The notes under the pieces: model-generated
The model's input: the letters and a program-made list of their open reading frames with translations, nothing else
What the model was told of the DNA's origin: nothing
The model's database searches: none
Source of the DNA: an uncultured Fidelibacterota bacterium
GTDB taxonomy: Bacteria; Fidelibacterota; Marinisomatia; Marinisomatales; UBA1611
Length of the DNA: 64,000 bases
Reading direction: 5' to 3'
NCBI GenBank assembly: GCA_913040915.1
Contig: CAJWHW010000002.1
Coordinates: 22,129-86,128, forward strand
Program-made: the position numbers and the translations under genes
Part shown: piece by piece, positions 2,942-59,392 of the stretch
Layout of the letters: every line of letters starts with the position of its first letter
How positions within the stretch are numbered: position 1 is the stretch's first letter

Positions 2942-2999
2942 ATTTGTAATTTTGCCTGATCAGGGTTTGGATTTCAAAATATCCTTATAAAATTCAGGC

Positions 3000-4100
3000 A
3001 TGGAAAAATATAAAACGGCTGTTCTTTTATTACAAGATGGCCGTTTTTTTTCAGGAAGAACATTTGGCGATGAGGGGGAGACTATTGGGGAGGTGTGTTT
3101 TAATACAGGCATGTCCGGCTATCAGGAAATTTTGACTGATCCATCTTATTGCCGTCAAATTGTTACGATGACAACTCCCCATATTGGTAACTATGGAGTG
3201 AACCCTGAAGATATAGAATCAGATAAAATTCAAGTGGCGGGATTTGTTATCAAGGAAGAGACAGAAATTCCATCAAACTGGCGATCTACACAATCCATCG
3301 GGGAATATTTAAAGATAAACCAAATTGTAGGAATTCAGGGAGTAGACACTCGGGCAATCACTCGGCATATCCGGGATAATGGTGCCATGAATGGCATTAT
3401 TTCTACGACTGATTCTAATCTCAATAGTCTAAAAAAAAAATTAGGCAATTCTCCAGAAATGACTGGGCTGGATTTAGCAAAAGAAGTAACCATATCAAAA
3501 CCCATTAAGTGGTCATCAAAATCAAATACGAAGTACAAAGTTGCGGCCATAGATTTTGGAATAAAGACCAATATTCTACGATTATTAGAATCCTATGGTT
3601 GTGAATTAACTGTATTCCCTGCCAATATATCTGCGCAGGACATTTTGGATTTTGATCCGCATGGCGTGTTTCTATCCAATGGTCCGGGCGATCCTTCCGC
3701 TGTTAAGTATGGTATTGAAACAGTAAAATCTTTGTTAGGAATAAAGCCAATCTTTGGAATTTGTCTAGGACATCAGATCTTGGCACTGGCTCTGGGTGCA
3801 AAAACATTCAAGTTGAAATTTGGCCACCGTGGTATCAACCATCCTGTTAAGAATCTTGAAACAGGAACAGTAGAGATCACTAGTCAAAATCATGGATTTG
3901 CAGTGGACCTGGATTCATTACCTGAACAGTTAATCTCCACCCATGTTAATTTAAATGATAATACATCAGAGGGGATTCGCTGTGATGCATTGAATGCATT
4001 TTCAGTGCAGTATCATCCTGAATCCAGTCCAGGGCCACATGACAGTCGCTATCTATTTCAACAATTCATTGAAATGATGAATCGTGCCAAAAAGAACTGA
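3000..4100 (+). CDS. carA: carbamoyl-phosphate synthase small (glutaminase) subunit
   Basis: 366 aa. The N-terminus [32 protein letters not shown] and the GATase motif GICLGHQ are present. It overlaps carB by 17 nt. Confidence 0.95.
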
Positions 4101-7100
4101 TATAGAATCCATATTGATTATTGGTGCCGGTCCCATTGTAATTGGTCAAGCTTGTGAGTTTGACTATTCCGGGACCCAGGCCACACGGGCGTTGAAGGAG
4201 GAAGGGTATCGTGTAATTCTGGTAAATTCTAACCCTGCTACGATCATGACTGATCCGAATCTTGCAGATGCGACTTTCATCGAACCCATTACCCCGGAGT
4301 ATGTGGAAGCTATCATTCAAAAAGAAAAACCGGATGCTATTCTTCCAACTGTAGGTGGGCAGACTGGTCTCAATATTTCAATGGCGCTTCACAAAAAAGG
4401 AATCTTGGAAAAATACGGGGTAAAATTGATTGGAGCTCAGGTTGAAGCCATAGATAAAGCAGAAGATCGTGAACAATTTAAAAAAGCCATGGATGAGGTC
4501 GGTATTGATACGGCTCAGGGCGGATTCATCCATACATGGGATGAGGCGGAAGCTCTGCTAGATGAAATGGAATTCCCAATTATAATCCGACCTTCATTCA
4601 CCATGGGTGGAACCGGTGGTTCTGTAGCCTATAATAATGAGGAATTTCAGGATTTGATTGAAAATGGACTACATGCTAGCCCCATAACAGAAGTATTAGT
4701 TGAGGAATCCTTACTTGGATGGAAAGAATTTGAGCTTGAAGTCATTCGGGATAGTTCAGACAATGCAATCATCATTTGTTCCATAGAAAATATAGATCCC
4801 ATGGGAGTCCATACCGGTGATTCGGTCACCGTTGCTCCGGCTATGACGTTGACTGATAAGGAATACCAGCAGATGCGTAATTGGGCGATTTTATGTTTGC
4901 GAACTATTGGTGTTGAGACTGGTGGTTCTAATGTACAGTTTGCTGTTAATCCGGATAATGGACGTATGATAATAATTGAAATGAACCCAAGGGTCAGCCG
5001 TTCATCTGCCCTAGCATCCAAAGCAACAGGATTCCCAATTGCTAAAGTGGCGGCAAAACTGGCTGTGGGGTTTACCTTGGATGAACTACCCAACGATATC
5101 ACCGGTAAGACTCTTGCTGCTTTTGAGCCCACCATTGATTATATCATAATAAAAGTACCTCGATTTGATTTTGAAAAATTTCCATCAGCGTCAGGACATC
5201 TAGGTGTTCAGATGCAAAGTGTTGGAGAAGTAATGTCCATTGGGCGCACATTTAGAGAATCGATTCAAAAAGCCTATCGTTCATTGGAGGTTGGATTGGA
5301 TGGGCTCGAACCCAAACCTGTAGCCAAAGGAGATCCAGATGTGAACCGAGCTCGCTCATTAGACATGTCTACCTTACGGCATGGAACAGCTTTTCGATTG
5401 CTCAAAATCTGGCAAGCCTTTAAAGAAGGGCAATCAATAGAAGATGTTTTCAATGTAACAAAGATCGATCACTGGTTCTTGAACCAAATTTCTATGTTGA
5501 CCAATCAAATAAAAAATAAATCCCTAATTGAATTAAAAGAGAATGGATTTTCAGATATGCAAATCAGTCGAATTTTGAATAAAACTGAAAAGGAGATTCG
5601 GGCACAGCGCAAAGCTGAAAATGTTTTGCCATCTTTTAAAGTTGTTGATACCTGTGCTGCTGAATTCGTAGCCCAAACCCCCTATTGTTATTCCACCTAT
5701 GATGAAGAAAATGAGATCCAACCCTTAGATGGGAAAAAAGTCATAATTTTAGGAGGCGGACCTAATCGCATTGGACAGGGGATTGAGTTTGATTATTGCT
5801 GTGTACAGGCAGTTTTTGGATTAAAAGATCAGAGTTATAAAACCATTATGGTGAATTGTAATCCGGAAACAGTTAGTACTGATTTTGATTTAGTAGACCG
5901 ACTTTATTTTGAACCGGTGACGTATGAAGATGTACTCAATATTGTTGAGTTTGAAAAGCCAGATGGTGTATTAGTCCAGTTTGGGGGCCAAACACCTCTA
6001 AAAATTGCAAATGCTCTAGCAGATGCCGGTGTACCCGTAATTGGTACATCTCCTGAAAATATTGACCTAGCGGAAGATCGAGAAAAATTTGGGTCAATAT
6101 TAAAAAAGCTGAATATATTATGTCCTAAATATGGTACTGGCCGAACATTAGATGAAGTAGTAACAGTTGCAGAGACAATTGGATTTCCTATTTTAGCTCG
6201 CCCCAGTTATGTTTTGGGAGGCCGAGCTATGGAAATCGTTTACTCAAAGAAACAGTTAATTGATTATATATCTCGAAATGCTGATGTGACGGAAGGGCAT
6301 CCTATATTGATTGACCAATTTTTAGAGGATGCTTTTGAATTTGATGTAGATGCGCTTTGTGATGGTGAGATAGTTCACATCGGTGCTGTAATGCAGCATA
6401 TTGAAGAGGCAGGAATTCATTCTGGCGATTCTGCCTGCGTGTTGCCACCATATCGCATTACTACAGAAGCTATGGATGAAATTATCCGGATTACTCAGGA
6501 TCTGGCTCTAGAATTAAAAGTAATTGGTTTGATTAATCTTCAATTTGCGTATAAGGATGGACAAATCTTTGTTTTGGAAGTAAATCCAAGGGCTAGTCGA
6601 ACAGTTCCCTTTGTTAGTAAAACAACCGATGTTCCTTTGGCGCGGATCGCTGCCCAATTGGCAGTAGGTGCAAAACTATCCGAATTTGAATTAAAACCTT
6701 GGGATGGCAATTCCCATATAGCGGTAAAGGAAGCAGTGCTACCATTCAATAAATTTCCGGAAGAATCCATTTTTTTGAGCCCCGAAATGAAATCCACAGG
6801 AGAAGTAATGGGTATTTCCAATACATTAGGGGATGCATTTAAGCGAGCATCTATAAGTGCCGGGAATATCATACCTAACACAGGAATTGTTTTTTTATCA
6901 GTGAATGATTCCGATAAACTAGATGTCATACCCATCGCACGGGACTTAAAGGAAATTGGTTTTGATCTAGTGGCAACTTTTGGAACAGCGAAAGAACTTC
7001 GTAGAAATGGTATCCATTCAGAAACAGTCTTTAAAGTGGGTGAGGGGCGACCCAATGTTGTGGATGGTATCAAGAATGGGGAAATCAATCTTGTGATCAA

Positions 7101-7272
7101 TACACCCATGGGTGCCCAGGCCCGCTATGATGAAGAATCCATTGGTCGAGCTTGTATTCAAAAAGGGATTATGGCCATTACTACATTGTCTGGAGCAGAA
7201 GCAGCTGTAAGAGCAATTAGATCACATAATTGGCAAATAGAAGTCAATCCCCTTCAGGATTACCATACTTAA
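4084..7272 (+). CDS. carB: carbamoyl-phosphate synthase large subunit
   Basis: 1062 aa. It starts [30 protein letters not shown], has duplicated ATP-grasp halves (a second [16 protein letters not shown]) and an MGS-like C-terminus. Confidence 0.97.
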
Positions 7273-7360
7273 ACTTCTAATTGCTTATTCTAAAATAATT
7301 CAATAGAATTTTTATCAAAATCTGTTTGTTTTATAATCAGGCAAGAAGTAGTAAAACTAA

Positions 7361-8758
7361 ATGATTAAAGAAAATTCAAAAGATCAAATCCAAGAACAAG
7401 ATATTTCATCATCTGAATTGGACAATTTAATTGATGCAAATAAAGATCTCTATGATAAATTAAACCAACTTCCTGAGATTGAAGCCTTACAAGCTTTAGA
7501 TGATGATGATGAAAAACAAACAGAAAAAAAAGAAGAGCGTCAACCTGTTCTGGCTTTCATCCCCAAATTGCAATCTTTATATGCAGATAATGAACTTGTT
7601 CGATATGCTACCTGGGCCTTAATTCTTATTCTATTTTCTACATCTATGCTAACATATCTCGAATATGATATGTTCAAAGCAAGTGTGACAGACCATGTAG
7701 GTGACTCTTTTTTCTTTGGCGGTAAGGAAGCAAACTGGCTAGATACATTTTTCCATACTTTCTGGTGGGCAATTGTCACATTTACAACGGTGGGATATGG
7801 TGATGTCAGTCCTGTAACCCATATTGGGAAATTTCTAACCATTATTATAATGTTATTAAACTTTGGAATCGTTACATTGTTAGGCGGGGCAGTTGCTTCT
7901 GTTTTAGTAGCCCAACGTTTAAAAGGAGATGATACTTTGGACGAAAATAAATATGACGGCCACCTAGTTATTGCAGGATGGAATTCAACCGTACCATCAG
8001 TTCTGAAACTTATTGATGCAAATAAAGATGCTGCAGATGTGGTAATCCTAGTGAATGAAACAGATGAGGATATTATTCAAAGGACTATTACAAATTATGA
8101 ACGTCTTGATATTACTCACATCCCTGAAAATTTTACTCAAGATGCAGTACTGCGCAAAGCATTTTTAGAAAAAGCTAGTACATTCATGATTTTGCCAGAC
8201 AGTTCTGGATTGTTACCTCATGAAGAGCCAGATGAAGACAAGACAGTTCTTACATGTTTAACAGCTAAATCCATCGCTGAATCTTGTAATGTTGTTGCAC
8301 ATGTTATAAATCCTGAAAATGTTTCACATCTCCAAAGAGCGAATGCCAATGAAATAGTTATCCCAGATGAGCATGTACCTCATCTTTTGGCTAAGCATGT
8401 TACTGACCCAGGTGTTCCTCAGTTTTTCGATGATTTAATATTGAAGGAAGAAAAAGATAAAGGTCTACAGGAAGTAAGAATACCCAAGAGTTTAAATGGG
8501 CAAAGTCATAATAAAATTTCTGCTTTTTTTAAATTCAAATATAACTGGCTTTTAGTCGGTTATGCTATTCGAAAAGCTGGATTTAGTTTGGATGAACAAA
8601 TGGGGGAAAGCGGGAGTCCACTTATACGAAATATGATCAAAGAACAATTAGAAGGTGCCGGTGTTAATCTCTCAAGTGATGAACATGTAATTGTTGAAAT
8701 CAACCCTTCGGATGATTATACTATCGATGATAAACATAGTGCATTGGTTTTGAGGTAA
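7361..8758 (+). CDS. 2-TM potassium channel with cytoplasmic RCK/TrkA-N-like domain (MthK-like architecture)
   Basis: 465 aa. The selectivity filter TTVGYGD is flanked by two hydrophobic helices. A Rossmann-like HLVIAGWNSTV follows. The N-terminal ~70 aa are acidic. Confidence 0.8.
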   Translation: MIKENSKDQIQEQDISSSELDNLIDANKDLYDKLNQLPEIEALQALDDDDEKQTEKKEERQPVLAFIPKLQSLYADNELVRYATWALILILFSTSMLTYLEYDMFKASVTDHVGDSFFFGGKEANWLDTFFHTFWWAIVTFTTVGYGDVSPVTHIGKFLTIIIMLLNFGIVTLLGGAVASVLVAQRLKGDDTLDENKYDGHLVIAGWNSTVPSVLKLIDANKDAADVVILVNETDEDIIQRTITNYERLDITHIPENFTQDAVLRKAFLEKASTFMILPDSSGLLPHEEPDEDKTVLTCLTAKSIAESCNVVAHVINPENVSHLQRANANEIVIPDEHVPHLLAKHVTDPGVPQFFDDLILKEEKDKGLQEVRIPKSLNGQSHNKISAFFKFKYNWLLVGYAIRKAGFSLDEQMGESGSPLIRNMIKEQLEGAGVNLSSDEHVIVEINPSDDYTIDDKHSALVLR

Positions 8759-47017: not shown

Positions 47018-50000
47018 ATGTATAAGGAAAAGAAAATTTATTCTTTATATAACCCACAGGTCTTTCACGATGCCTGTGGTATTGGATTCATTGTAACAAG
47101 ATCTGGAAAACCAGAGAAAAGAATACTTCCTTTAGCTATAAAATCATTAAAACGACTATCTCACCGTGGAGCAAAGTCTTATGATCGGAAATCTGGTGAT
47201 GGTTCAGGTATCCTTATAGACTTACCGAAAACATTTTTTAGAACTGTTCTTCGTAATGAGTTTAATAAGTCTATTCCCGGAAGAGAAATTTTAGCAGTAG
47301 CTATGGTTTTCACAACTGCATATGAGCGGAAGTGGCTTGAAAAACTATTTGCAATACAATTAAAGGAATCGGGATTTCGCTTACATGCAGTCAGGTGTGT
47401 TCCTACAGAAAATAAATCTTTAGGTGAGCTTGCCTTTAAAACTAAACCTATAATATTACAGTTCATTGTTTCTGGAAAAAAAATCAGGAAAAAGAATTTT
47501 GAGACTAGTTTGTATCTTCTAAGAAAAATAATTGAGAAAAAGATATTAAATGAAAGAAAAAAATCATACATCTGTTCTTTTTCATCAAAAATAATTGTGT
47601 ATAAGGGGCTGATGGCATCAGCACAGCTCGATCAGTTTTACCTTGATCTTCGCGATAAGGATTTTGTTGTAAAAATGGTTTTATTTCACGAACGCTTTTC
47701 TACTAATACAGGATCTGCTTGGGCCATGGCCCAGCCGTTTCAAATGGTTGCTCACAATGGTGAATTCAATACCATAAAAGGAAACAGGTTATGGATGAAA
47801 GCTCGTGAAAAAGAAATTTCATCAAAATTTTGGGGATCAGATTTAGATAACTTAAAACCAATAATAGAACCTACCGGAAGCGATTCAAAAAGTTTTGATA
47901 ATGTATTGGAGTTTCTAGTAAGAAGTGGGCGGAATATTTTTGATAGTATTATGATTATGATTCCGGATACATATTCTCAAAAAAAGAAATACTACAGTAA
48001 CAGAAATATGAATAGAAAAATGCGTGATTATTTTGTATATCATGAAAACTTTATAGAACCATGGGATGGCCCTGCTGCAGTTGTTTACACCGATGGTGAC
48101 TTTATAGGTGCTAAAATGGATCGTAATGGTTTACGTCCTCTAAGATATACTATTACAAAGGATAATCTTGTCATAATGGCATCAGAAGCGGGTATTCTTG
48201 AAGTGGATGATGATAACCTAATTCTTCACCACCATATGAAATCGGAAGAAATATTTGGCGTATCTCTATCTGATGGCGCAATTATAAAAAATAAAGAATT
48301 GAAAATTAGGGAGGCATCAAAAAAACCCTATGGTCAGCTCTTAAAAAATAATTTGCACGTTTTAAATAGACAAAACACTTCCGATGAATTTGGAATATTT
48401 GGAATACCTCCAGATGGGTTTGATCAGCGTTTAAGAGTTGCGCTTGGATGGTCAAAGGAAGATCTCACTAAATTTTTAATTCCAATGGCTACAAATAGAA
48501 GAGAACCATTGGGATCAATGGGGGATGATACTCCTTTGGCTGCAATTTCACAAATTGACCGCAGGTTTTATGATTATTTTAAACAGTGGTTTGCACAGGT
48601 TACAAATCCACCAATTGATTCGATAAGAGAACGATCTGTCATGAGCTTATATAAATACCTCGGTAGTGAGGATAATTTATTAAATACTCGACCGACATTT
48701 AATGGAGCTATAAGAATAACGAGCCCAGTATTATCACCAAATGAAATTTTAAAACTCCATGGCTATAAAGATTGGTTTATGCATAAAAAATTTATTTGTC
48801 ACTATAAAAAATCTGCGAACCTAGGTTTAAAACTGCAACGAATTAATTATAATTCTGCAAAATCTGTAGAAAATGGGGCAAAGATTATTTTTTTAAGTGA
48901 TGAGGGATTAAAATGTGGCGCCTTGCCTATACCAATGCCCCTGGTTGTTTCATCCGTACATAATTATTTAGTTAAGAAAAAGTTAAGAAGTAATGTTTCA
49001 ATTATTTGCATTGCGGGTGATGTTGTTGAAGACCATCACATTGCAGTTTTAATAGCTTTAGGCGCTAGCGCGGTATATCCCTATATGGCTTATGAACTAA
49101 TCAGAGAATATTTTAATGATGATGATTGGGCTGAAAAAATGAGTAACTATCGTTATGCACTTGAAAAAGGGTTACTCAAGATTATGTCCAAAATGGGAAT
49201 ATCTACTATAAGTAGCTATCATGGTAGTATGTTGCTACATTCTATAGGACTGGGTCCAAAAATTTCCAAATCTCATTTCCCTACTATTCCAAGCTATTTA
49301 GGTGGGGTTGAGATTGAAAATATTCATAATTCTTTATTGAAACGTCATGAGATTGCTTTTGATGTAAAAAAGAATGGAATGGTAGAAAAAGGATTATACA
49401 GGTATAGAAAAAAGGGCGAGGCTCATGGGTTTAGCCCTGTAAATTTTAAAAAAATACAATCTGTATCCGAAAATAATAAGGTTACCAAATCCTCTGCTGA
49501 AATTGATATTGTTTATATTAGAGATTTTTTCAAGATAGTAAGTAAAAGAATTTCTATTAATATTGATATGGTAGAGTCATCAGAATCAATTCTTAAGCGA
49601 ATTGGGTCAGGTGGAATCTCCTTTGGAGCAATTTCTGAAAAATCTCATCGGGAACTTGCTAGAGGCTTTACTTTAGTTGGCGCAAGAAGTAATACAGGAG
49701 AAGGAGGTGAGTTGGAAGACCGTTACAGTGTATCTAATCCTGATAAAAATGTGAATTCTTATGTAAAACAGATTGCGAGTGGAAGATTTGGAGTCAATGT
49801 TGAGTACCTTACGGCAGCACGCGAAATACAAATAAAAATGGCACAGGGTGCGAAACCAGGTGAAGGAGGGCAACTTCCTGGGTTCAAAGTTTCAAATCTA
49901 ATTGCTTCAGCCAGATCATCAACACCTGGCATGCCATTAATTAGTCCACCACCTCACCATGATATATATAGTATTGAAGACATCAAACAATTAATTTATG

Positions 50001-51511
50001 ATTTAAAAGTAGTAAACCCGCGTGCAAAAGTATCTGTAAAGCTAGTGGCTCAACCAGGTATTGGTACAATTGCATCTGGAGTTGTAAAGGCAGGCGCCGA
50101 TATTATTTTGATTTCTGGTGCAGATGGAGGGACAGGAGCAAGTCCATTAGGTTCTTTAAAACATGCAGGTTTCCCTTGGGAATATGGGTTAGCAGAATCT
50201 CACCAGGTTCTTCATGCAAATGGGCTTCGTGACAGAGTTATACTTAGGGTAGATGGTGGAATTAAATGGGCAAGAGACATTATCATTGCGGCTATTCTTG
50301 GTGCGGAGGAATACGATTTTGGTACTGCTGCTTTAGTTTCTTTAGGGTGCATTATGGCTAGACAATGTCATTTAAATACTTGTCCTGCAGGCATTGCTAC
50401 AAATGATGAAAAATATATGAAAAAATTTAAGGGCAAAGCTGAGAATATTAGTTATTATTTAGAAAATATTACCCAGGAAATAAGATTAGAATTATCTGAA
50501 ATGGGGTATATGCATTTGCAGTCGATTATAGGGCGTACAGATTTATTAAGTATCAATAGAAAGTATAATGGATATATGAAAAGTCGCGGACTCAATTTTG
50601 ATATCCTGTTAAATAAAGGTGCAAAAAATGGATTGCCATTACAATCTGATATGAAAGTACAATATACCGATGTAAGGCAGAAAAAAACCATTGATGAAGA
50701 AATTATCAATGAAATACGATCGGAAATGTTAACTCATGGTCATGCTGTTATTTATAAAAATATAAAAAACACTGATAGAGCAATTGGTGCGCGTATATCA
50801 GGTGAAATTTCTTTTCTTTATGGAAGAAATAATTTTAAAGGGAGTATTCAGTGCCGTTTATTTGGTACAGCCGGACAAAGTTTTGGCGCATTTTTAAGTA
50901 AAGGCATAGAATTACGTTTAAAAGGGATTGCCAATGATTATGTCGGCAAAGGCATGTCATCAGGTTTGATTACTATTCGTATGCCCGAAAAAATTCGTAG
51001 ACAGGATAAAGACCATACCGTTATTGGAAATGTGGCCCTCTATGGAGCGACGGGAGGTCAAATATTTGTTGCAGGTAGAGGAGGTGAAAGATTTGCCGTT
51101 AGGAATAGCGGCGCATCTGGTGTTATTGAAGGGATAGGTAACCATGGATGTGAATACATGACACAGGGAACAATCATTATTCTTGGGCAAATAGGGAAAA
51201 ATTTCGGCGCAGGCATGACAGGCGGTGTTGCTTATGTTTATTCCAAGAAAAAAAAGCTAGAAAACTATATAAATAAAGATTTTATTAATGAAGTTAATTT
51301 GGATAAAAAGGATCAAAGCTTGGTTTTAAGGCTACTAAGGAACCACAATTTTCACACTGATTCATCTATAGGTAAAAAGATTATAAATAACTGGGATAAT
51401 GAAATAATATTTTTTAAGAAATTAATACCAACTGCCATGGATATTGTGGATTTGGACAATATTTATAATTTACATGTGGCGGATCGAATCAATGTGGTTT
51501 TAAATGAGTAG
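47018..51511 (+). CDS. gltB: glutamate synthase large subunit
   Basis: 1497 aa. It has the N-terminal amidotransferase with HDACGIGF, an FMN/Fe-S central domain and a C-terminal GXGXG beta-helix domain. No gltD is adjacent in this window. Confidence 0.95.
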   Translation: MYKEKKIYSLYNPQVFHDACGIGFIVTRSGKPEKRILPLAIKSLKRLSHRGAKSYDRKSGDGSGILIDLPKTFFRTVLRNEFNKSIPGREILAVAMVFTTAYERKWLEKLFAIQLKESGFRLHAVRCVPTENKSLGELAFKTKPIILQFIVSGKKIRKKNFETSLYLLRKIIEKKILNERKKSYICSFSSKIIVYKGLMASAQLDQFYLDLRDKDFVVKMVLFHERFSTNTGSAWAMAQPFQMVAHNGEFNTIKGNRLWMKAREKEISSKFWGSDLDNLKPIIEPTGSDSKSFDNVLEFLVRSGRNIFDSIMIMIPDTYSQKKKYYSNRNMNRKMRDYFVYHENFIEPWDGPAAVVYTDGDFIGAKMDRNGLRPLRYTITKDNLVIMASEAGILEVDDDNLILHHHMKSEEIFGVSLSDGAIIKNKELKIREASKKPYGQLLKNNLHVLNRQNTSDEFGIFGIPPDGFDQRLRVALGWSKEDLTKFLIPMATNRREPLGSMGDDTPLAAISQIDRRFYDYFKQWFAQVTNPPIDSIRERSVMSLYKYLGSEDNLLNTRPTFNGAIRITSPVLSPNEILKLHGYKDWFMHKKFICHYKKSANLGLKLQRINYNSAKSVENGAKIIFLSDEGLKCGALPIPMPLVVSSVHNYLVKKKLRSNVSIICIAGDVVEDHHIAVLIALGASAVYPYMAYELIREYFNDDDWAEKMSNYRYALEKGLLKIMSKMGISTISSYHGSMLLHSIGLGPKISKSHFPTIPSYLGGVEIENIHNSLLKRHEIAFDVKKNGMVEKGLYRYRKKGEAHGFSPVNFKKIQSVSENNKVTKSSAEIDIVYIRDFFKIVSKRISINIDMVESSESILKRIGSGGISFGAISEKSHRELARGFTLVGARSNTGEGGELEDRYSVSNPDKNVNSYVKQIASGRFGVNVEYLTAAREIQIKMAQGAKPGEGGQLPGFKVSNLIASARSSTPGMPLISPPPHHDIYSIEDIKQLIYDLKVVNPRAKVSVKLVAQPGIGTIASGVVKAGADIILISGADGGTGASPLGSLKHAGFPWEYGLAESHQVLHANGLRDRVILRVDGGIKWARDIIIAAILGAEEYDFGTAALVSLGCIMARQCHLNTCPAGIATNDEKYMKKFKGKAENISYYLENITQEIRLELSEMGYMHLQSIIGRTDLLSINRKYNGYMKSRGLNFDILLNKGAKNGLPLQSDMKVQYTDVRQKKTIDEEIINEIRSEMLTHGHAVIYKNIKNTDRAIGARISGEISFLYGRNNFKGSIQCRLFGTAGQSFGAFLSKGIELRLKGIANDYVGKGMSSGLITIRMPEKIRRQDKDHTVIGNVALYGATGGQIFVAGRGGERFAVRNSGASGVIEGIGNHGCEYMTQGTIIILGQIGKNFGAGMTGGVAYVYSKKKKLENYINKDFINEVNLDKKDQSLVLRLLRNHNFHTDSSIGKKIINNWDNEIIFFKKLIPTAMDIVDLDNIYNLHVADRINVVLNE

Positions 51512-51757
51512 TTATTTAAGGATCAATAATGCCATTATTTCATATATTTATAATATATAGTTAAAATACATTATATATTAATTATTATAAAGTTATTAAT
51601 TATATAATAATAATATATTTATACATATTACTTTATAATTTTATAATATTCTTGATTATTATTCTTATTAAAATTAATATTATATGTTAATATCATTAAT
51701 ATAATAATATTATAATGATATTATATAAATATATTTAATATTATAAGGGATGAGGCT
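51512..51757. other. extreme AT tract (roughly 94% A+T by my hand count over 51541-51740) upstream of the porin-amtB-glnK cluster
   Basis: About 200 bp consist almost solely of ATA/TAT/TTA words with many short palindromes such as TAATATTA. It is the probable promoter/regulator-binding region. No specific site is identifiable. Confidence 0.5.
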
Positions 51758-52393
51758 ATGTCAAAAAAAATAATCTTACACTTCTTAGTAATTATTTCAG
51801 GGTTCACAACTATTTATGGAGAATGGGGAGTTTCATGTGATATATATAGTCGATATGTGTGGAGAGGTACTGATTTTGGAAATAGCCCATCGATTCAGCC
51901 CGGTATTTCATATACTACAGGTCCCTTAACTTTGGGTGCGTGGAGTGCATGGCAATATAGCGGAAGTGGAAATGAGAATGACTTATATGTGACTTACACA
52001 ATCGGCGATTATTCATTAACCTTTACAGATTATTATTTCCCAGGACCCTCTTCTAGTGGTGATTTCACCGTATTTGCACCAGATACAGGAGCTCACAATA
52101 TAGAAATATCTCTTGGCGGTTCCTTTAGTGGGGTAGGGTTAACAGCAGCAATGTTTATTATTGAGCCAGGTTTTTATGGTGCATTCGAAGATGAAAAAGC
52201 TCCAATGTCAAAATACATTAATCTTTCTTATGGCTCTTTCATGATTGGTTTAGGAAATGGAGGCTATACATCTGATGGTGGGTTTACGGCGATTGAATTA
52301 GGGGTATCCGCGAGCAATGATAAATTTAAATGCTCATGGATTTTAAATCCTGATTCTGGTTTGGCCTTTCTTATTATCGGTATGAGTCTATAA
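51758..52393 (+). CDS. small outer-membrane beta-barrel protein, TorF/Gcw_chp-like putative porin
   Basis: 211 aa with a signal peptide. It has alternating aromatic/Gly beta-strand patterns and SRYVWRGTDFG near the N-terminus. Its position just upstream of amtB-glnK matches where such porins occur in other bacteria (from memory). Confidence 0.55.
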   Translation: MSKKIILHFLVIISGFTTIYGEWGVSCDIYSRYVWRGTDFGNSPSIQPGISYTTGPLTLGAWSAWQYSGSGNENDLYVTYTIGDYSLTFTDYYFPGPSSSGDFTVFAPDTGAHNIEISLGGSFSGVGLTAAMFIIEPGFYGAFEDEKAPMSKYINLSYGSFMIGLGNGGYTSDGGFTAIELGVSASNDKFKCSWILNPDSGLAFLIIGMSL

Positions 52394-52414
52394 AATAATA
52401 TAGGAATCAAAAAA

Positions 52415-53719
52415 ATGAAAAAAATTAGAATTTTATTTATTTGTTTATTTTGCACGAATTTTTCATTATTACTTGCTAATAGTGATCCAACAACTTCAGA
52501 TGCCATATTTACTGTTAATAATACCTGGATGCTCGTTGCAACAATTTTAGTATTTATAATGCATTTAGGATTTGCAAGTTTAGAGGCAGGACTTACTCGA
52601 TCAAAAAATACAGTAAACATTCTTTTTAAAAATGTTTCTATCATTGCCATTGGTATTTTGAGTTATGCTATTTGTGGATTTAACTTAATGTATCCAGGTG
52701 ATTTCAATAGCTACTTTGGATTTGCCGGTTTTGGTATAAATAATCCAGTAGGTTCGGCAGGGTTGATTGATTATGCTGGTGGAGCTTATACTTATTTCAC
52801 AGATTTTATATTTCAAGCTATGTTCGCTGCAACAGCTGCAACTATTGTTTCTGGAGCTGTGGCAGAAAGAATAAAGCTATCATCATTCCTGATATTCTCA
52901 GCTGTATATGTAGCAATAATATATCCCATAGCAGGTTCTTGGAAGTGGGGTGGAGGCTGGTTAGATCAACTTGGTTTTTATGATTTTGCAGGATCTACTT
53001 TGGTACATGGTGTTGGAGGTTGGGCTGCACTTGTAGGCGCAATTATACTAGGACCTAGAATTGGTAAATATGGGAAAAATGGAAAAATGAAACCAATTTT
53101 AGGCCATAATATGCCACTTGCAACTATTGGTGTTTTTCTTTTATGGTTTGGTTGGTATGGATTTAATGGAGGGTCAGTACTTTCTGCAGATCCTGGTGCT
53201 GTATCTTTAGTGTTTGTTACTACCACTTTAGCAGCAGCAGCGGGTGTGATTGGAGCAATGGCTACGTCTTGGTTTATAAGTCAAAAACCAGATTTATCAA
53301 TGATATTAAATGGTTCATTATCTGGGTTGGTTGGTATCACAGCTGGTGCAGACGTTATCAGTCCAATGAACTCTGTATTAGTTGGTTTTATTTCGGGTAT
53401 CATTGTGGTTTTATTTGTAATACAATTAGATAAATTAAAAATTGATGATCCTGTTGGCGCTATATCTGTCCACCTTGTTTGCGGTATCTGGGGAACTCTT
53501 GCTGTCGGTATTTTTAGTCCCCTACACAGTTTATATGTTCAAGCGTTGGGTATTTTAGCATATGGATTTATCAGTCTTATTGGTTCAATTCTGATCTTTT
53601 TAGCATTGAAACATACCATTGGCCTAAGAGTCTCAGAAGATGAAGAAATTATAGGACTTGATATTGGAGAACATGATATGGAGTCATATGCTGGCTTTGA
53701 AATTTTCACTGTAGAATAG
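52415..53719 (+). CDS. amtB: ammonium transporter
   Basis: 434 aa, polytopic. It contains DFAGSTLVHGVGGWAAL and twin-His region motifs (HLVCGIWGTL). Confidence 0.93.
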   Translation: MKKIRILFICLFCTNFSLLLANSDPTTSDAIFTVNNTWMLVATILVFIMHLGFASLEAGLTRSKNTVNILFKNVSIIAIGILSYAICGFNLMYPGDFNSYFGFAGFGINNPVGSAGLIDYAGGAYTYFTDFIFQAMFAATAATIVSGAVAERIKLSSFLIFSAVYVAIIYPIAGSWKWGGGWLDQLGFYDFAGSTLVHGVGGWAALVGAIILGPRIGKYGKNGKMKPILGHNMPLATIGVFLLWFGWYGFNGGSVLSADPGAVSLVFVTTTLAAAAGVIGAMATSWFISQKPDLSMILNGSLSGLVGITAGADVISPMNSVLVGFISGIIVVLFVIQLDKLKIDDPVGAISVHLVCGIWGTLAVGIFSPLHSLYVQALGILAYGFISLIGSILIFLALKHTIGLRVSEDEEIIGLDIGEHDMESYAGFEIFTVE

Positions 53720-53731
53720 GAGAATTTATTA

Positions 53732-54076
53732 ATGAAACTAATTATTGCAATTATTCAGCCGGAAGAATTACCGGCAATTAAAGAAGAACTTCTCAAAAGG
53801 AAAATTTACAAGTTTACCATTTCCAATGTTAGAGGTCAGGGAAAAGAAATTCCGGTAAAGGAGGTCTATCGAGGCATATCTCATGAAATTAGTCTATTAA
53901 AAAAAGTTAGGCTTGAGATTGCAGTCAATGATGATTTTGTAGAAGCTGCTATAGAAGCTATTACTACAGTAGCCAAAAAGGATAAGGATAAAGGCCGAGG
54001 TAAGATATTTATTCTTGCTATTGAAGAGTGTATCCGTATACGAACTGGTGAAAAAGGTAAGGAAGCAATTGGGTGA
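53732..54076 (+). CDS. glnK: nitrogen regulatory protein P-II
   Basis: 114 aa. MKLIIAIIQPEEL and a T-loop with VYRG are present. It lies immediately downstream of amtB. Confidence 0.9.
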   Translation: MKLIIAIIQPEELPAIKEELLKRKIYKFTISNVRGQGKEIPVKEVYRGISHEISLLKKVRLEIAVNDDFVEAAIEAITTVAKKDKDKGRGKIFILAIEECIRIRTGEKGKEAIG

Positions 54077-54360
54077 AAATTAATTATGGATAATCTATAT
54101 TATTTTTCGTAAACCAGAGTTGGCAAGTAAATCTCATCAAAAATTTATTTCTTCACCCAGAGATTTGTCAATTTACTAATCAGATTTGATCGCGGTTCCC
54201 AAACTTTAATAATATTTAATATAAATTGTGATTTAATTCTTGTAAATAAACACTGGTAACTATATTAAATTACTAAATATATATTATTATATTGAACAAA
54301 TACTTAATATTACTATATAATTAACAATATTATTTTAATAATTTAAATAAAGAATAGAAA

Positions 54361-55380
54361 ATTAATATTCCTATAAATATAGCACTTTTTGGATTTGGTC
54401 GTATTGGAAGAAATCTATTCCGATTAGCAAGTAAAGATCCCCGTTTTAACATAGTTGCTATTAGCGAACACAGTCATGTGGAAGCATTGCACTACCTGTT
54501 GGTTCGTGATTCCGTGCATGGCGCACTAGATGATAATGATATCCAGTTAGATGGAGACTCCTTCATTGTTCATGGGAAAAAAATACGTATTCTGCCAGGG
54601 AAAAAACCAGGAGAAGTTCCTTGGATTACGTTGGGCGTGGATGTCGTTGTTGATGCTACAGGTAAATATTTAAAACGTGATGAATTAAATAAACACATTA
54701 AAGCCGGAGCAAAACGTGTTATTGTTTCCCGTATGCCCGAAGATGAAATTGATCGAATTATTATTCATGGTGTAAATGAGGATACCATATCAAAATCAGA
54801 TAAAATTATTTCTGCTACATCCTCTACAACCCAGGTATTAGCTCTTATGTTGAAAATTCTCAATCAGCACTATTCTGTAAAGCGAGCAATGATGACTACC
54901 GTACATGCGTTTACATCGGATCAGCCTTTGGTGGACGCAATAGGACTGGATTTACGTAGATGCCGATCAGCAGTTAAAAATATTATTCCCAATACTACTT
55001 CTGCTCCGGAGATAGTTGAGAAATTGATGCCAGAATTCACTGGGAAAATTGATGGAATAGCATTCAATGTTCCAGTTCCAAATGGATCTTGTGTTGACTT
55101 GACTACAGAACTGGAATTGATGCCTACTGTAGATGAAATAAACCAGACATTGAAAGAAGAATCAGAAAATACATATAAAGGTATTATGGGCTACACAGAT
55201 GATCCTATTGTTTCCTGCGATGTAATTGGCCGTGATGAGACTATGGTTTTTGATGCTCAGGCTACCATGATTAACTCAAAATCCTTATTGAAAACAATTT
55301 GCTGGTATGATAATGGTTGGGGATTCTCAAAAAGAATTTTGGATACGATCGAACTTTATGCCAAGGAAAATATTCGCTAA
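54361..55380 (+). CDS. GAPDH-family paralog with catalytic Cys replaced by Ser and no canonical start codon (pseudoenzyme or decaying gene)
   Basis: The frame is open from 54358, after a TAG at 54355. It encodes INIPINIALFGFGRIGRNLF (Rossmann), but the first ATG/GTG/TTG is the GTG at 54478 used by the ORF track. The active-site region reads SATSSTTQVLA, versus SNASCTTNCLA in the downstream paralog. Other GAPDH motifs are intact (TVHAFTSDQ, WYDNGWGFS). Confidence 0.6.
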   Translation: MNIPINIALFGFGRIGRNLFRLASKDPRFNIVAISEHSHVEALHYLLVRDSVHGALDDNDIQLDGDSFIVHGKKIRILPGKKPGEVPWITLGVDVVVDATGKYLKRDELNKHIKAGAKRVIVSRMPEDEIDRIIIHGVNEDTISKSDKIISATSSTTQVLALMLKILNQHYSVKRAMMTTVHAFTSDQPLVDAIGLDLRRCRSAVKNIIPNTTSAPEIVEKLMPEFTGKIDGIAFNVPVPNGSCVDLTTELELMPTVDEINQTLKEESENTYKGIMGYTDDPIVSCDVIGRDETMVFDAQATMINSKSLLKTICWYDNGWGFSKRILDTIELYAKENIR

Positions 55381-56381
55381 TGAAAATTGCAATAAATGGA
55401 TTTGGAAGAATTGGAAGGTCTGTATTCAGAGTTCTTAATAATAATAAAGAAATTGAAATCGTAGCCATCAACGATATTTTCGATAAAGGTTCCCTCGTAT
55501 ATTTACTGAAATATGATACCGTCATGGGTCGGTTCCCTGGAGATGTCTCCTTAAATGGGGATCTGTTGATTACAGCTAATCAAAGGGTAAAATTATTGGC
55601 AGAACGAATTCCTAGGCAATTACCCTGGCATGAATTAGGAGTAGATATTGTTATAGAATCTACAGGAATATTCCGGCAAAGATCCCAATTGGAGGATCAC
55701 ATTTCTGCTGGAGCAAAAAGGGTAATTTTAACTGTTCCTGCGAAAGATGAAATTGATTATACTGTTGTATTGGGTGTAAATGATAATGGTTTAACAAAAA
55801 ATCATCGTATCGTATCCAATGCCAGTTGCACTACAAATTGTTTAGCACCTATGGCGAAAGTACTCCATGAAGCATTTGGAATTGAGTTAGGTATAATCAA
55901 TACGATTCATGCATATACCAATGACCAGCGTTTGGCTGATGTTCCTCATTCAGACTGGAGAAGGAGTCGTGCTGCGGCTGAAAATGTAATTCCTACAACA
56001 ACGGGTGCTGCACGTGCTGTGGGTAAAGTATTACCGGAGCTTAATGGTAAACTAGATGGAATAGCTATGCGAGTACCGGTTCCAGATGGCTCGGTCGTAG
56101 ATTTCAATGTACGTTTACAACATGAAGTCACAGTTGAAACAATTAATGATGCTGTACGATCGGCTGCAGATGATGGTCCCATTTCAAAAGTATTACAATA
56201 TTCTAATTTACCAGTTGTATCAACAGACATTATTGGGAATAAGTATTCTTCCATTTTTGATGCACCATTTACAAGGGTAATTAAGGGAAATTTTGTAAAA
56301 ACACTGAATTGGTATGATAATGAATGGGGATATGCCAGCAGAGTAGTGGATCTTATAGGATTGCTAGGAAAATTGATCTAA
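55380..56381 (+). CDS. gap: glyceraldehyde-3-phosphate dehydrogenase (type I)
   Basis: It contains MKIAINGFGRIGR, SNASCTTNCLAP, TIHAYTNDQ and WYDNEWGYS. The start overlaps the upstream stop (TAATG). The ORF-track start at 55317 is rejected. Confidence 0.93.
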   Translation: MKIAINGFGRIGRSVFRVLNNNKEIEIVAINDIFDKGSLVYLLKYDTVMGRFPGDVSLNGDLLITANQRVKLLAERIPRQLPWHELGVDIVIESTGIFRQRSQLEDHISAGAKRVILTVPAKDEIDYTVVLGVNDNGLTKNHRIVSNASCTTNCLAPMAKVLHEAFGIELGIINTIHAYTNDQRLADVPHSDWRRSRAAAENVIPTTTGAARAVGKVLPELNGKLDGIAMRVPVPDGSVVDFNVRLQHEVTVETINDAVRSAADDGPISKVLQYSNLPVVSTDIIGNKYSSIFDAPFTRVIKGNFVKTLNWYDNEWGYASRVVDLIGLLGKLI

Positions 56382-56623
56382 TTCAAGCAAACAGCAATAT
56401 AGCTTACTGGCATTTTTTAGCATTGTAGGTATATGTTTTTAACAAATAAATTTATTGCCTGCTCGTTCTATGGTTTTGTATCAGACCATATTTATTAAGG
56501 CTAGAATTCTCCTATATCATTATCAACAATTACAGTCAATTCTGTGGTATAGTTTTTTCATCAATCTTTTAAAATGACTTGTTCAAATACTTATAATACT
56601 GGAATAATAATTATATAACTAAG

Positions 56624-59392
56624 ATGTTAGTAAAGGATAAATTATTTACTTTTGCACAGCAATGCGGTATATCGGATCAAATGCAATCTAGATCAGTATT
56701 GATATTTGAATTACTGGAAACAGTTTTTTATAGGTTAGATAACTCTAAAGAACTTGAATTTAAGACTATATTAAATTCTCTTCTATCTATAGGAGATCAT
56801 ACTTCTTTGAATAATTCCATATTATCAACTCTGGAAACATGGTCAAATGAAGATCTATATCAAGTATTGAAATTTATGGGAACCTACTTTCACTTACTTA
56901 ACCAAGCAGAGCTAAGTGAAATTATATCAATAAATAGAAATCGATCAAATAATGCTACATTCGATATTCCCAAAGCTGATTCTATTTTTGCTAGCATTAA
57001 AATGTTAAAACAGAAAAACATAAATTTTGATGAAGCAATGTCAATTCTTAAAAGTATTAAGATACACCCTACATTTACAGCCCATCCTACGGAATCTAGA
57101 AGGCAATCCTCCATAGATAAACAAAAATATATTATTAAAAAGATTAATCAAATTTTATTTGATCCAATTGGCGAAAAAGAAAAAGAAAACCTTATGAATG
57201 AGGTAAAGCGACTATGTACATTGCTTATGATGACAGATGATATCCGTTCGCACAGAATATCCATAAGAGATGAAATAAATAATACAATAAATAATACCTT
57301 AGATGCGCTTTGGAATGCGGTACCCAGACTTTCACATGATATTGCATCAGCATTTGAAATCTATTATAACAAAAAAATCACTATTCCTAATTTCATTAGA
57401 TTCCATAATTGGGTAGGGGGGGATAGAGACGGCAATCCTGAAGTAACTCATGATATTACTGAATATGCAATCCAAACTCAAAAAATACATATAGCGGGGA
57501 AATATATCGATGCGTTGAATATGCTATACGATGACCTAAGCATAACAGTAAAAGACCAAACAAAGCTTATAAAGTTACAGAATTCTATTGAAGCTGATAT
57601 AATCAATTTGGATATAGATGAAAAAATTCAAAAACAGCTCAAACTAGAACCATTCCGACTAAAGATATTGTGTCTGAAACAAAAATTAGAGCGTCATAAA
57701 GAAAAATTAACCATCCATTACAAAAACCCAGATTATATATCTAAAGAATTCATATCTGAACTGAAGATTATCCAATCATCTCTCAAATTATTATCAACTA
57801 AAAATAAAATTGATATTGGACCTATCAGCGATTTAATAATTCAAGCAGAAATATTTGGTTTTAACATGATGAGCTTGGATATACGTGAACATTCAGATGT
57901 ACACGAAGAAGTGATCCATGAAATATTAAAAAAAATAAATTGTAAAGTGAATTATAAAGCTTTGGATGAATCCAATAAAAATGAAATTTTGATTGAAAGT
58001 ATCAAATTTCAACAGGAGTTGAACCAAACATTTATAAATAACTTATCTGAAAAATCCAAAGAGACTCTCCATACTTTTCTAGTTATCAAAAATGAGTTAT
58101 TGATTGACCCAGATTCAATATCATCATATATCGTAAGTATGACTCATGCAAAAAGTGATATTCTTGAAGTGCTTTTTTTAGCCAAACTTACAGGGGTTCT
58201 GCATTATCAAGATGGTAAAATGAACTGTGGACTCCATATTGTGCCCCTATATGAAACTATTAATGATCTTAAATCAGCACCTAAGCAATTTGCTGAGTTA
58301 TTAGATGATAACATTTATAAAAACTATATACAAAGTCAGGGTTTATTTCAAGAAATTATGCTCGGTTATTCAGATAGCAACAAGGATGGAGGTATGGGTA
58401 CTGCCCAATATTCTCTGTACAAATGTCAAGAAAGACTGGCTAAAATTTGTAAAGAAAATTGTATTGATTATAGATTATTCCATGGACGTGGCGGATCAAT
58501 AAGTAGAGGTGGAGGAAAATCAAATAAAGCAATAATTAGTTTACCTCCTAATTGTCATAATGGGAAAATACGGATGACAGAACAAGGTGAAGTGATTTCT
58601 TATCGGTATGGATCTTCTCGAATTGCAAAAAGGCATCTAGAACAAATTATCCATGCCCAAATGATTGGATTGGTTGGTATTATAAATGATGAAATAGAAT
58701 TTGAAAATCCGCTCAACTTAGACATTTCAATTAGAGCCTATGATTCCTATAAGAAAAATATAATGAATCAACAGTGTTGGAATTATTTTGTAAATGCAAC
58801 TCCCATTAATCATATTAGTAATTTACCAATTGCTTCAAGACCTGCAGCAAGAAAAACTTTTTCAGATGAATCAACAGGGTTTTATGATTTAAGGGCAATC
58901 CCCTGGGTATTTTCTTGGACACAGTTAAGATATAATCTTACCGGTTGGTTTGGTTTAGGAACAGCATTATCCCATTTGATTGAAAAATCGTCAAAATTAA
59001 ATGAATTAAAAACGTTATATAAAAAATCAAAATTTTTAAAACAACTTATGGATAATATGTCTTTTGAAATGGCTCGTTCCAGATTACACATATCAGAATT
59101 ATATTCGAAGACTAAAAGTGAAAAAGCATTCCATGCTATTTTAATGAGTGAATATAAACTTTGTTTGAATGCCTATAAGGATATAAGCGACTATGAAAAT
59201 TTACTAGATAGAAATCCTGTTATTTCAAATTCTATTGCATTCCGAAATCCGTTTACTGATCTATTAAACATCATTCAAGTTATCCTGTTAAGACGTCAAA
59301 TGGAAAATAAAGATCTTACAGATCATGATTTGGACAAATCAATTTTTATGTCAATCAATGCAATTGCAGCAGCAATGCAAACCACAGGTTAA
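56624..59392 (+). CDS. ppc: phosphoenolpyruvate carboxylase
   Basis: 922 aa. It contains FTAHPTE, GYSDSNKDGG and FHGRGGSISRGGG, and ends in the C-terminal QTTG. Confidence 0.95.
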   Translation: MLVKDKLFTFAQQCGISDQMQSRSVLIFELLETVFYRLDNSKELEFKTILNSLLSIGDHTSLNNSILSTLETWSNEDLYQVLKFMGTYFHLLNQAELSEIISINRNRSNNATFDIPKADSIFASIKMLKQKNINFDEAMSILKSIKIHPTFTAHPTESRRQSSIDKQKYIIKKINQILFDPIGEKEKENLMNEVKRLCTLLMMTDDIRSHRISIRDEINNTINNTLDALWNAVPRLSHDIASAFEIYYNKKITIPNFIRFHNWVGGDRDGNPEVTHDITEYAIQTQKIHIAGKYIDALNMLYDDLSITVKDQTKLIKLQNSIEADIINLDIDEKIQKQLKLEPFRLKILCLKQKLERHKEKLTIHYKNPDYISKEFISELKIIQSSLKLLSTKNKIDIGPISDLIIQAEIFGFNMMSLDIREHSDVHEEVIHEILKKINCKVNYKALDESNKNEILIESIKFQQELNQTFINNLSEKSKETLHTFLVIKNELLIDPDSISSYIVSMTHAKSDILEVLFLAKLTGVLHYQDGKMNCGLHIVPLYETINDLKSAPKQFAELLDDNIYKNYIQSQGLFQEIMLGYSDSNKDGGMGTAQYSLYKCQERLAKICKENCIDYRLFHGRGGSISRGGGKSNKAIISLPPNCHNGKIRMTEQGEVISYRYGSSRIAKRHLEQIIHAQMIGLVGIINDEIEFENPLNLDISIRAYDSYKKNIMNQQCWNYFVNATPINHISNLPIASRPAARKTFSDESTGFYDLRAIPWVFSWTQLRYNLTGWFGLGTALSHLIEKSSKLNELKTLYKKSKFLKQLMDNMSFEMARSRLHISELYSKTKSEKAFHAILMSEYKLCLNAYKDISDYENLLDRNPVISNSIAFRNPFTDLLNIIQVILLRRQMENKDLTDHDLDKSIFMSINAIAAAMQTTG

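Follow-up and report, generated by a model that had tools for sequence, protein, structure and literature searches.

What can a glyceraldehyde-3-phosphate dehydrogenase (GAPDH) gene be for if it lacks both the nucleophilic cysteine and a canonical start codon? The question is posed by a 64,000-nucleotide stretch of an uncultured Fidelibacterota bacterium (assembly GCA_913040915.1, contig CAJWHW010000002.1, positions 22,129 to 86,128 of the forward strand; hereafter the window, meaning the whole stretch analysed), in which two GAPDH-like genes stand in tandem, the downstream one a canonical gap and the upstream one, here called the paralog, without the cysteine. Comparison of the paralog with its relatives indicates that it is a working, selected protein and not a dead gene. 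As to its function, we judge the chances evenly balanced for and against a role beside Gap, in which the paralog would bind NAD(H) without catalysing a reaction and would either join Gap in mixed tetramers or regulate it. The two genes are as follows.

54361..55380 (+): the GAPDH-like paralog, coding for 339 residues and a stop, with Gp_dh_N and Gp_dh_C domains and an active site that is dead or rewired.
55380..56381 (+): canonical type I gap (SCTTNC, H176, R231, WYDNEWGY), scoring 424.4 bits on TIGR01534 against a cutoff of 367.2.

Both proteins of the pair carry Gp_dh_N and Gp_dh_C (E-values of 6.6e-27 and 4.1e-49, respectively, for the paralog), and they share 40% identity over 332 residues (E 4e-93). 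The initial annotation had described a tandem of GAPDH genes in which the upstream frame is open from 54358 to 55380, behind a TAG at 54355, with no ATG, GTG or TTG before a GTG at 54478, and the sequence confirms each of these points: the frame (+) runs for 340 codons from the TAG at 54355-54357 to the TAA at 55378-55380, and the GTG lies 3' of the GFGRIGR loop (54391-54411), so that the list of open reading frames (ORFs) gives just 54478..55380. At the base composition of the window, the chance of 340 stop-free codons is ~1e-11. The spacer that follows the end of glnK (54076), which had been put at about 280 bp after amtB-glnK, measures 284 bp.

To place the substitutions in the paralog, we compared residues across 77 orthologs, 54 partner gap genes and 98 canonical representatives. 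The positions that matter most in the window are these.

54391..54411 (+): Rossmann dinucleotide-binding loop GFGRIGR, 5' of the first canonical start; invariant in 77/77 orthologs.
54820..54837 (+): hexapeptide SSTTQV, compared with SCTTNC in GAPDH (C149S, N152Q, C153V).
54904..54906 (+): CAT codon of His176, the general base being kept; H in 77/77 orthologs.
55066..55068 (+): AAT, Asn in place of Arg231; N in 77/77 orthologs, R in 54/54 partner gap genes and 98/98 canonical representatives.
55315..55317 (+): GGT, Gly in place of Glu314 of WYDNE; G in 77/77 orthologs, E in 54/54 partner gap genes and 96/98 canonical representatives.

The active-site motif of the paralog reads SATSSTTQVLAL, in which Ser148 (TCC, 54820-22) is followed by serine at residue 149 (TCT, 54823-25) and residue 153 is valine (GTA); the corresponding motif of gap at 55380-56381 is SNASCTTNCLAP. 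The replacement of both cysteines, by Ser and Val, and the retention of the histidine region (TVHAFTSDQ), of RRCRSAVKNIIPNTT and of WYDNGWGFS had been reported in the initial annotation and are seen again in the translations. The region of residue 231 reads FNVPVPN in the paralog versus MRVPVPD in gap, and the window paralog further carries Ser in place of Gly209 and of Asn31. Five substitutions occur in all 77 orthologs (N31S, R231N, E314G, P156L and T206N) and three more in most of them (C149S in 75/77, N152Q in 74/77 and E94D in 96%), position 209 is hypervariable (W, S, G, F and others) and T208 is mostly kept. Invariant as in GAPDH are GxGxxG, R10, I11, T96, G97, S148, T150, T151, H176, T179, D181 and Q182, together with R195, R197, Y311, D312 and N313; residue 32 is acidic throughout (D in 61 orthologs and E in 16), with Glu in the window.

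In canonical GAPDH we take Cys149 to be the nucleophile, His176 the general base, Arg231 with Thr179 the substrate C3-phosphate (Ps) site, and Thr208-Gly209 the inorganic phosphate (Pi) site. Judged by these residues, the classical enzyme's nucleophile and Ps site have been lost, together with part of its Pi site, and the predicted protein cannot oxidise glyceraldehyde-3-phosphate by the classical thiol-dependent route. Most of the dinucleotide pocket looks intact, and NAD binding is predicted. The Cys-to-Ser exchange, to which the initial annotation drew attention, is present in 75 of the 77 orthologs, but it is not what sets the family apart: L001/L009 have Thr at residue 149 (in a sequence found on 13 contigs) and L062 has Ala, and on the alignment the hallmark of the family is wider, consisting of the invariant R231N, E314G and N31S with a hypervariable position 209. 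Because Thr and Ala occur at position 149 in these orthologs, Ser149 is unlikely to be an essential new nucleophile. The R231N, E314G, G209S and N31S changes were absent from the earlier account, as was the overlap with gap described below.

The gene has the marks of long-standing selection. The 120 best matches of a protein search (67-99% identity; Marinimicrobia/Neomarinimicrobiota by source name) include no protein with Cys at position 149, nearly all having Ser and two (P0003 and P0005) Thr. In a scan of one genome per species we recovered 80 loci at 49-92% identity, all from metagenome-assembled or single-amplified genomes of Marinimicrobia or Fidelibacterota, and the paralog is an uninterrupted ORF in every one of them. 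Against close orthologs, the ratio of non-synonymous to synonymous substitution rates (dN/dS, Nei-Gojobori) was 0.043-0.073 for the paralog versus 0.050-0.062 for the partner gap; together with the intact orthologs, these values uphold the earlier description of a full-length GAPDH paralog that has lost the nucleophilic Cys and a canonical start codon, and they show it to be under selection. That a duplicated gap has become a pseudogene or was inactivated very recently, as had also been considered, would agree with the loss of Cys149 and of a canonical start codon, yet we regard it as refuted by the 340 open codons, the intact orthologs with the same substitutions in ~80 species down to 49% identity, a dN/dS of ~0.05 and the presence of the family in several phyla. 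Even less credence, practically none, can be given to a sequencing or assembly error that masks a Cys codon or an ATG, given that the same Ser codon position and the same ATT recur in many independent assemblies from different projects (L001-L012; P0001 at 99% identity).

The family extends beyond Marinimicrobia. When 1.84 billion cluster representatives were searched exhaustively with HMMER, Cys149 was missing from 19 of the 134 best matches of near-full length; most of these 19 were also without Arg231, and they grouped together in a tree. A profile built from the non-Marinimicrobia members brought up 120 proteins, from Acidobacteriota, Thermoanaerobaculia, Polarisedimenticolaceae and Eisenbacteria by name, in which residue 231 is Asn in nearly all (C or K in a few), residue 314 is Gly in all but two and residue 209 is other than Gly in all but one. 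Cys149 is retained by most of these wider-family proteins (SCTANA, SCTAHC), and the remainder have V, I, N, S or G. Because the wider family accepts Cys, Val, Ile, Asn, Gly or Ser at position 149 while N231 and G314 stay, a thiol at this position is dispensable. Neighbour-joining bootstrap values were 74/100 for the N231 family and 100/100 for the Marinimicrobia branch with P0122. The Acidobacteriota and Eisenbacteria relatives that keep Cys149 and His176 (P0271-P0389; L092-L094) have N231, G314 and a residue other than Gly at 209 in common with the rest; they exceed the TIGR01534 cutoff by a small margin and carry the annotation of an ordinary type I GAPDH.

In its genomic setting, the paralog has gap as its invariable downstream partner. 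A canonical gap (ASCTTNC, MRVPVPDG) lies directly 3' of it in every Marinimicrobia locus with enough downstream DNA, and the same order is found in 6/6 non-Marinimicrobia lineages for which downstream DNA was available (L088, L090, L091, L092, L093 and L094), where the flanks are unrelated and the genomes GC-rich; the contig of P0137 is too short to show neighbours. On these loci, the module of paralog plus gap is maintained in SAR406/Marinimicrobia and also in two or more further phyla of bacteria. One protein, P0270 (673 aa, on a 579-kb contig), was considered as a paralog-gap fusion and rejected, its Arg-rich, out-of-frame middle marking a frameshift or an assembly artefact; the contig still displays the same tandem order. 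The junction in the window has two features.

55363..55367 (+): AAGGA, a Shine-Dalgarno (SD)-like element for gap inside the 3' end of the paralog.
55378..55382 (+): TAATG stop/start overlap, in which the paralog stop shares one base with the gap ATG.

Among the loci, the paralog-gap junction is an overlap of 4 nt (-4, ATGA) in 32, an overlap of 1 nt (-1) in 15 and a spacing of 0 to +5 nt in 7, and an SD-like purine run occupies the same place in the paralog 3' end in 51/54.

We favour, at the even balance given above, a mechanism in which the paralog would be co-transcribed with gap, its stop overlapping the gap start, and in the window would be synthesised at a low level from an AUU start at 54361; the retained Rossmann loop, acidic residue 32, His176, Thr179, Arg195 and Asn313 would allow it to bind NAD(H), and in mixed tetramers with Gap, or as a regulator, it would tune Gap activity. 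Both the physical association with Gap and the regulatory effect are proposed from the sequences. This partner role is suggested because gap is the sole neighbour conserved over very long evolutionary distances, usually with a stop/start overlap, because the family shows drift at the catalytic position together with strong conservation of the fold and of the S-loop sequence, and because dead paralogs elsewhere activate or regulate their active twins (PMC3663545). What is found here is what a pseudoenzyme subunit would present: catalytic residues lost, fold kept, purifying selection, and obligatory co-occurrence with the active paralog.

The same residues can be read in another way, as those of a stand-alone oxidoreductase of non-thiol chemistry that uses NAD(P), with His176 as general base, on a substrate that makes no C3-phosphate contact, and whose only tie to gap is co-expression. 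There is no variation in the Rossmann loop, D/E32, H176, T179, R195 or N313, the residues that have come in by replacement (Q152, N206, N231 and G314) are likewise invariant and not drifting, selection on the paralog is as strong as on gap, a weak start would suit an enzyme needed in small amount, and Cys149 is kept in many relatives. Conversely, residue 149 varies freely (S, T, A, C, V, I, N, G) and residue 209 is hypervariable, a pattern that leaves no single conserved apparatus at the classical site; gap is the only neighbour conserved across phyla, no other pathway gene co-occurring; and engineered C149S GAPDH is essentially inactive. We consider such an enzyme unlikely, though worth keeping in view. 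The initial annotation had also allowed for an enzyme of altered chemistry, and of that suggestion the part in which Ser acts as a new nucleophile is disfavoured, position 149 being Thr, Ala, Cys, Val, Ile, Asn or Gly in relatives.

A further alternative to the partner role is that the paralog is a moonlighter or sensor that binds NAD(H) or a metabolite and acts on nucleic acid or on another protein, independently of Gap, and that it lies beside gap for co-regulation only. GAPDH folds are known to moonlight, and the paralog keeps its dinucleotide-binding residues while it has lost catalytic and anion-site residues. Its length and fold, however, equal those of GAPDH and the sequence holds no hint of a new binding surface or an added domain, while the tight stop/start overlap with gap has been preserved over very long evolutionary distances. 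We regard an independent binder of this kind as rather improbable.

Several observations weigh against the partnership with Gap that we favour. The evidence for a complex is gene linkage, and a glycolytic neighbour alone does not mean that the two products bind each other; E. coli epd, for example, adjoins pgk and fbaA. No genuine paralog-gap fusion protein was found among the family members examined. The weak start in the clade of the window argues there against a 1:1 stoichiometry with Gap, and codon usage is uninformative on expression, C-ending two-fold codons and the GC content of third codon positions (GC3) being alike in paralog and gap (Wilcoxon p 0.7-0.96). The invariance of Q152, N231, G314 and N206, with His176, Thr179 and Arg195 kept, fits a re-tooled enzyme equally well, and the many relatives with Cys149 in other phyla could be active on another substrate.

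How, then, is translation of the paralog begun? In the window, the in-frame codons at the 5' end are AAA ATT AAT ATT CCT ATA AAT ATA GCA CTT TTT GGA TTT GGT CGT ATT GGA AGA, and the near-cognate candidates among them are the ATT at 54361 and 54367 and the ATA at 54373 and 54379, the same four codons that the initial annotation had named as the sole candidates; the comparison of orthologs picks out the first. The features of this region are listed here.

54292..54321 (+): promoter-like TTGAAC-18 nt-TATAAT, ~40 nt 5' of the start; 10/12 matches in a consensus scan.
54355..54357 (+): TAG stop closing the frame, two codons 5' of the start, as read in the sequence.
54361..54363 (+): ATT, a near-cognate (AUU) codon in the place of the homologous ATG and the inferred start of translation.

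The ATT at 54361 stands nine codons before the F of FGFGRIGR, at a position that is ATG in 49/82 loci, and in the alignment it falls on the ATG of L013/P0011, the nearest ortholog to have one (MQTPINIAL versus INIPINIAL). In the orthologs, a TAA, TAG or TGA ends the frame 1-5 codons 5' of the homologous ATT. The ATT codon is identical in 7/7 species of the window's subclade, which by itself is weak evidence since 6/25 conserved Ile columns are likewise codon-invariant. The 39 codons between ATT 54361 and GTG 54478 have a dN/dS of 0.028-0.044 (11-17 synonymous versus 2-5 non-synonymous differences) and, because of these low ratios, can be taken as translated. We infer that translation starts at ATT 54361, with Met at the N-terminus and a low initiation efficiency; the predicted Met-initiated N-terminal peptide is MNIPINIALFGFGR. 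In E. coli, ATT, ATA and CTG initiate at about 1-2% (0.02-3%) of the level of AUG, and AUU starts are found in infC and pcnB only (bioRxiv 10.1101/063800). Because the start is a near-cognate AUU, low-level synthesis of the paralog is probable.

A truncated protein that starts at GTG 54478 and is without the Rossmann loop, as annotated for P0001, has in its favour that this GTG is the first canonical start and that automatic callers picked GTG or TTG in close relatives. The closest relatives are accordingly annotated by gene finders as proteins of 300 or 317 aa, there being no canonical start before GFGRIGR in their DNA. However, the 39 codons upstream of the GTG are under purifying selection and encode the invariant GFGRIGRN, and the GTG and TTG codons chosen by the callers correspond to internal Val and Leu codons in ATG-bearing orthologs. 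The truncated form is thus very improbable.

All weak starts are confined to one subclade of the paralog tree, in which TTG is used in ~10 species, CTG in L017 and L083, ATT in the window, six close species and L014, and ATA in L022; the remaining paralog clades start with ATG, rarely with GTG. The partner gap in the weak-start loci retains ATG, with the single exception of a TTG in L001. There (6951-7955; the same in L009) the canonical gap apparently starts from TTG and itself has ATT where other species have ATG, so both genes of the pair have weak starts. SD-like AGGA/AGGAG lies 6-9 nt 5' of the start in several orthologs (L005, L022, L016, L017 and L083) and the window has merely AAAGAA; an SD-like motif is present in about a third of the long ORFs of the window, so a weak SD is not unusual here. 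Translation from an upstream ORF into the paralog was considered and ruled out, there being no ATG in the 120 nt upstream and intervening in-frame stops being present.

The promoter-like element at 54292-54321 is probably the pair's own, separate from amtB-glnK, and a comparable TTGAnn...ATACTTAA block (TTGAnn...ATACTTAAnATT) is found 5' of the orthologs in L001, L007 and L012. A scan for terminators between glnK and the pair gave nothing meaningful, and an Rfam scan of 53700-56700 gave no RNA family. In six other loci (L016, L017, L020, L024, L027 and L083), a conserved non-coding block of ~50 nt (ATACTTTAATTTATTGGTTATTWTATAATAACAAAAAAATATTAAATTC) lies 50-80 nt 5' of the paralog start, and within it is a 16-bp palindrome, GTTATTATATAATAAC, that may be an operator for some regulator.

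Domain models and structure prediction agree on a GAPDH fold. The paralog scores 324.6 bits on TIGR01534 (type I GAPDH, EC 1.2.1.12), below the cutoff of 367.2, and 268-278 bits on the erythrose-4-phosphate dehydrogenase models (TIGR01532 / NF010058) versus cutoffs of 530-539. Across the family, TIGR01534 scores of 310-383 straddle 367.2, with the result that members are named type I GAPDH or merely 'NAD-binding domain-containing protein'; NCBIfam has no model for the paralog family. An AlphaFold2 model from 49 aligned sequences gave a GAPDH fold with a predicted local distance difference test score (pLDDT) of 86 and a predicted template-modelling score (pTM) of 0.87, and had template-modelling (TM) scores of 0.86-0.88 to solved GAPDHs, the C149S and C149A mutants included. 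The model is a monomer, which supports the fold only and is silent on NAD binding or oligomerisation. The S-loop (residues 185-207), whose sequence is strongly conserved in the family, was alone below a pLDDT of 50; the alignment is shallow, and this loop is normally ordered by tetramer contacts.

Set against known systems, the paralog resembles type I phosphorylating GAPDH (GapA; Geobacillus stearothermophilus 1GD1) in its two-domain fold, its length, an identity of 41% to 1GD1, and the GxGxxG loop, S148, T150, H176, T179, R195 and N313; it differs in being without Cys149, Arg231, Glu314 and the conserved Gly209, in scoring below the cutoff, and in being always additional to, and 5' of, a true gap. 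The C149S and C149A mutants of G. stearothermophilus GAPDH (PDB 1NQ5/1NQO and 1NPT/1NQA), structures of which are among its best sequence and structure matches, likewise have Ser or Ala at the nucleophile position and are folded, NAD-binding tetramers, but they are laboratory-made and keep R231, G209 and E314, which the natural paralog has also lost while evolving under selection. Structures related to chloroplast GapA/GapB also turn up among the matches. In the A2B2 GAPDH of chloroplasts two paralogs, GapA and GapB, work together, one of them regulatory; unlike the window paralog, which is without catalytic residues and without an extension, GapB is active and regulates through a C-terminal extension. 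Epd (GapB-Ec) is a further GAPDH paralog of changed specificity in a glycolytic gene cluster; it retains the catalytic Cys, which the window paralog has not, and the latter reaches 278 against the cutoff of 539.

Closest in kind to the proposed partner role are dead-paralog subunits, among them AdoMetDC prozyme and bacterial HisZ/HisG, which share with the paralog lost catalytic residues, retention by selection and co-occurrence with an active copy. The deoxyhypusine synthase of trypanosomatids has a catalytically dead paralog for which the heteromer and the activation were shown experimentally (PMC3663545). The heteromer is thus shown in such systems, whereas here an association with Gap would follow from obligatory gene linkage. 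As regards initiation, the paralog shares with infC and pcnB a near-cognate AUU that is conserved at the site of initiation (bioRxiv 10.1101/063800) and is unlike them in belonging to an unrelated family and in that its subclade varies among ATT, ATA, CTG and TTG at one position while other clades have ATG. A full-text literature search yielded no description of a GAPDH family with these features, an absence that is no proof of their being unpublished. The fold and the idea of a pseudoenzyme partner are known; the lineage, the fixed module with gap in several phyla and the clade-wide near-cognate starts were not found in the literature or curated families searched.

The surroundings of the pair vary. 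Nitrogen-assimilation genes flank it in the window, with gltB, amtB and glnK upstream (47018-54076) and ppc downstream (56624-59392), and glnA lies just 3' of the pair in L001 (8228-10390) and L007 (8155-9488), with two AsnC/Lrp-type regulators in L001 and one in L007; apart from nitrogen-assimilation genes, the flanks show no conservation. On the L007 contig, the genes for a tRNA methyltransferase (its domains) and arginyl-tRNA synthetase (its N and core domains), at 92-1168 and 2582-4210, are each called in two pieces, which suggests frameshifts or lower assembly quality, and the paralog and gap are intact despite these split neighbours. Directly 5' of amtB in the window, a 211-aa ORF (51758-52393) has a signal-peptide-like N-terminus and may encode an outer-membrane or porin-like product.

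Taken to its full extent, the proposal would be of an ancient GAPDH pseudoenzyme that is invariably paired with gap as a two-gene module in Marinimicrobia, Acidobacteriota, Eisenbacteria and further lineages, enters mixed Gap tetramers and, through its NAD(H) site, tunes glycolytic/gluconeogenic flux, its dosage being throttled in one oceanic Marinimicrobia clade by AUU, AUA and CUG starts that are possibly responsive to initiation factor 3 (IF3). We offer this wider scheme tentatively and hold it to be doubtful as a whole. For the annotation of these genomes the consequences are more immediate: GAPDH is among the best-studied enzymes, yet automatic annotation labels the paralogs 'type I GAPDH' or shortens them, mis-starts at GTG or TTG by gene callers remove the NAD-binding loop, and it is wrong to count two GAPDHs when the metabolism of these genomes is reconstructed. 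The series from ATG to ATT, ATA, CTG and TTG across the clade is a clean natural data set on near-cognate initiation outside E. coli. Should the paralog be a partner of Gap, it would provide a bacterial case, spanning several phyla, of an enzyme under the control of its own dead copy, in the abundant ocean lineage SAR406, which is without a cultured model.

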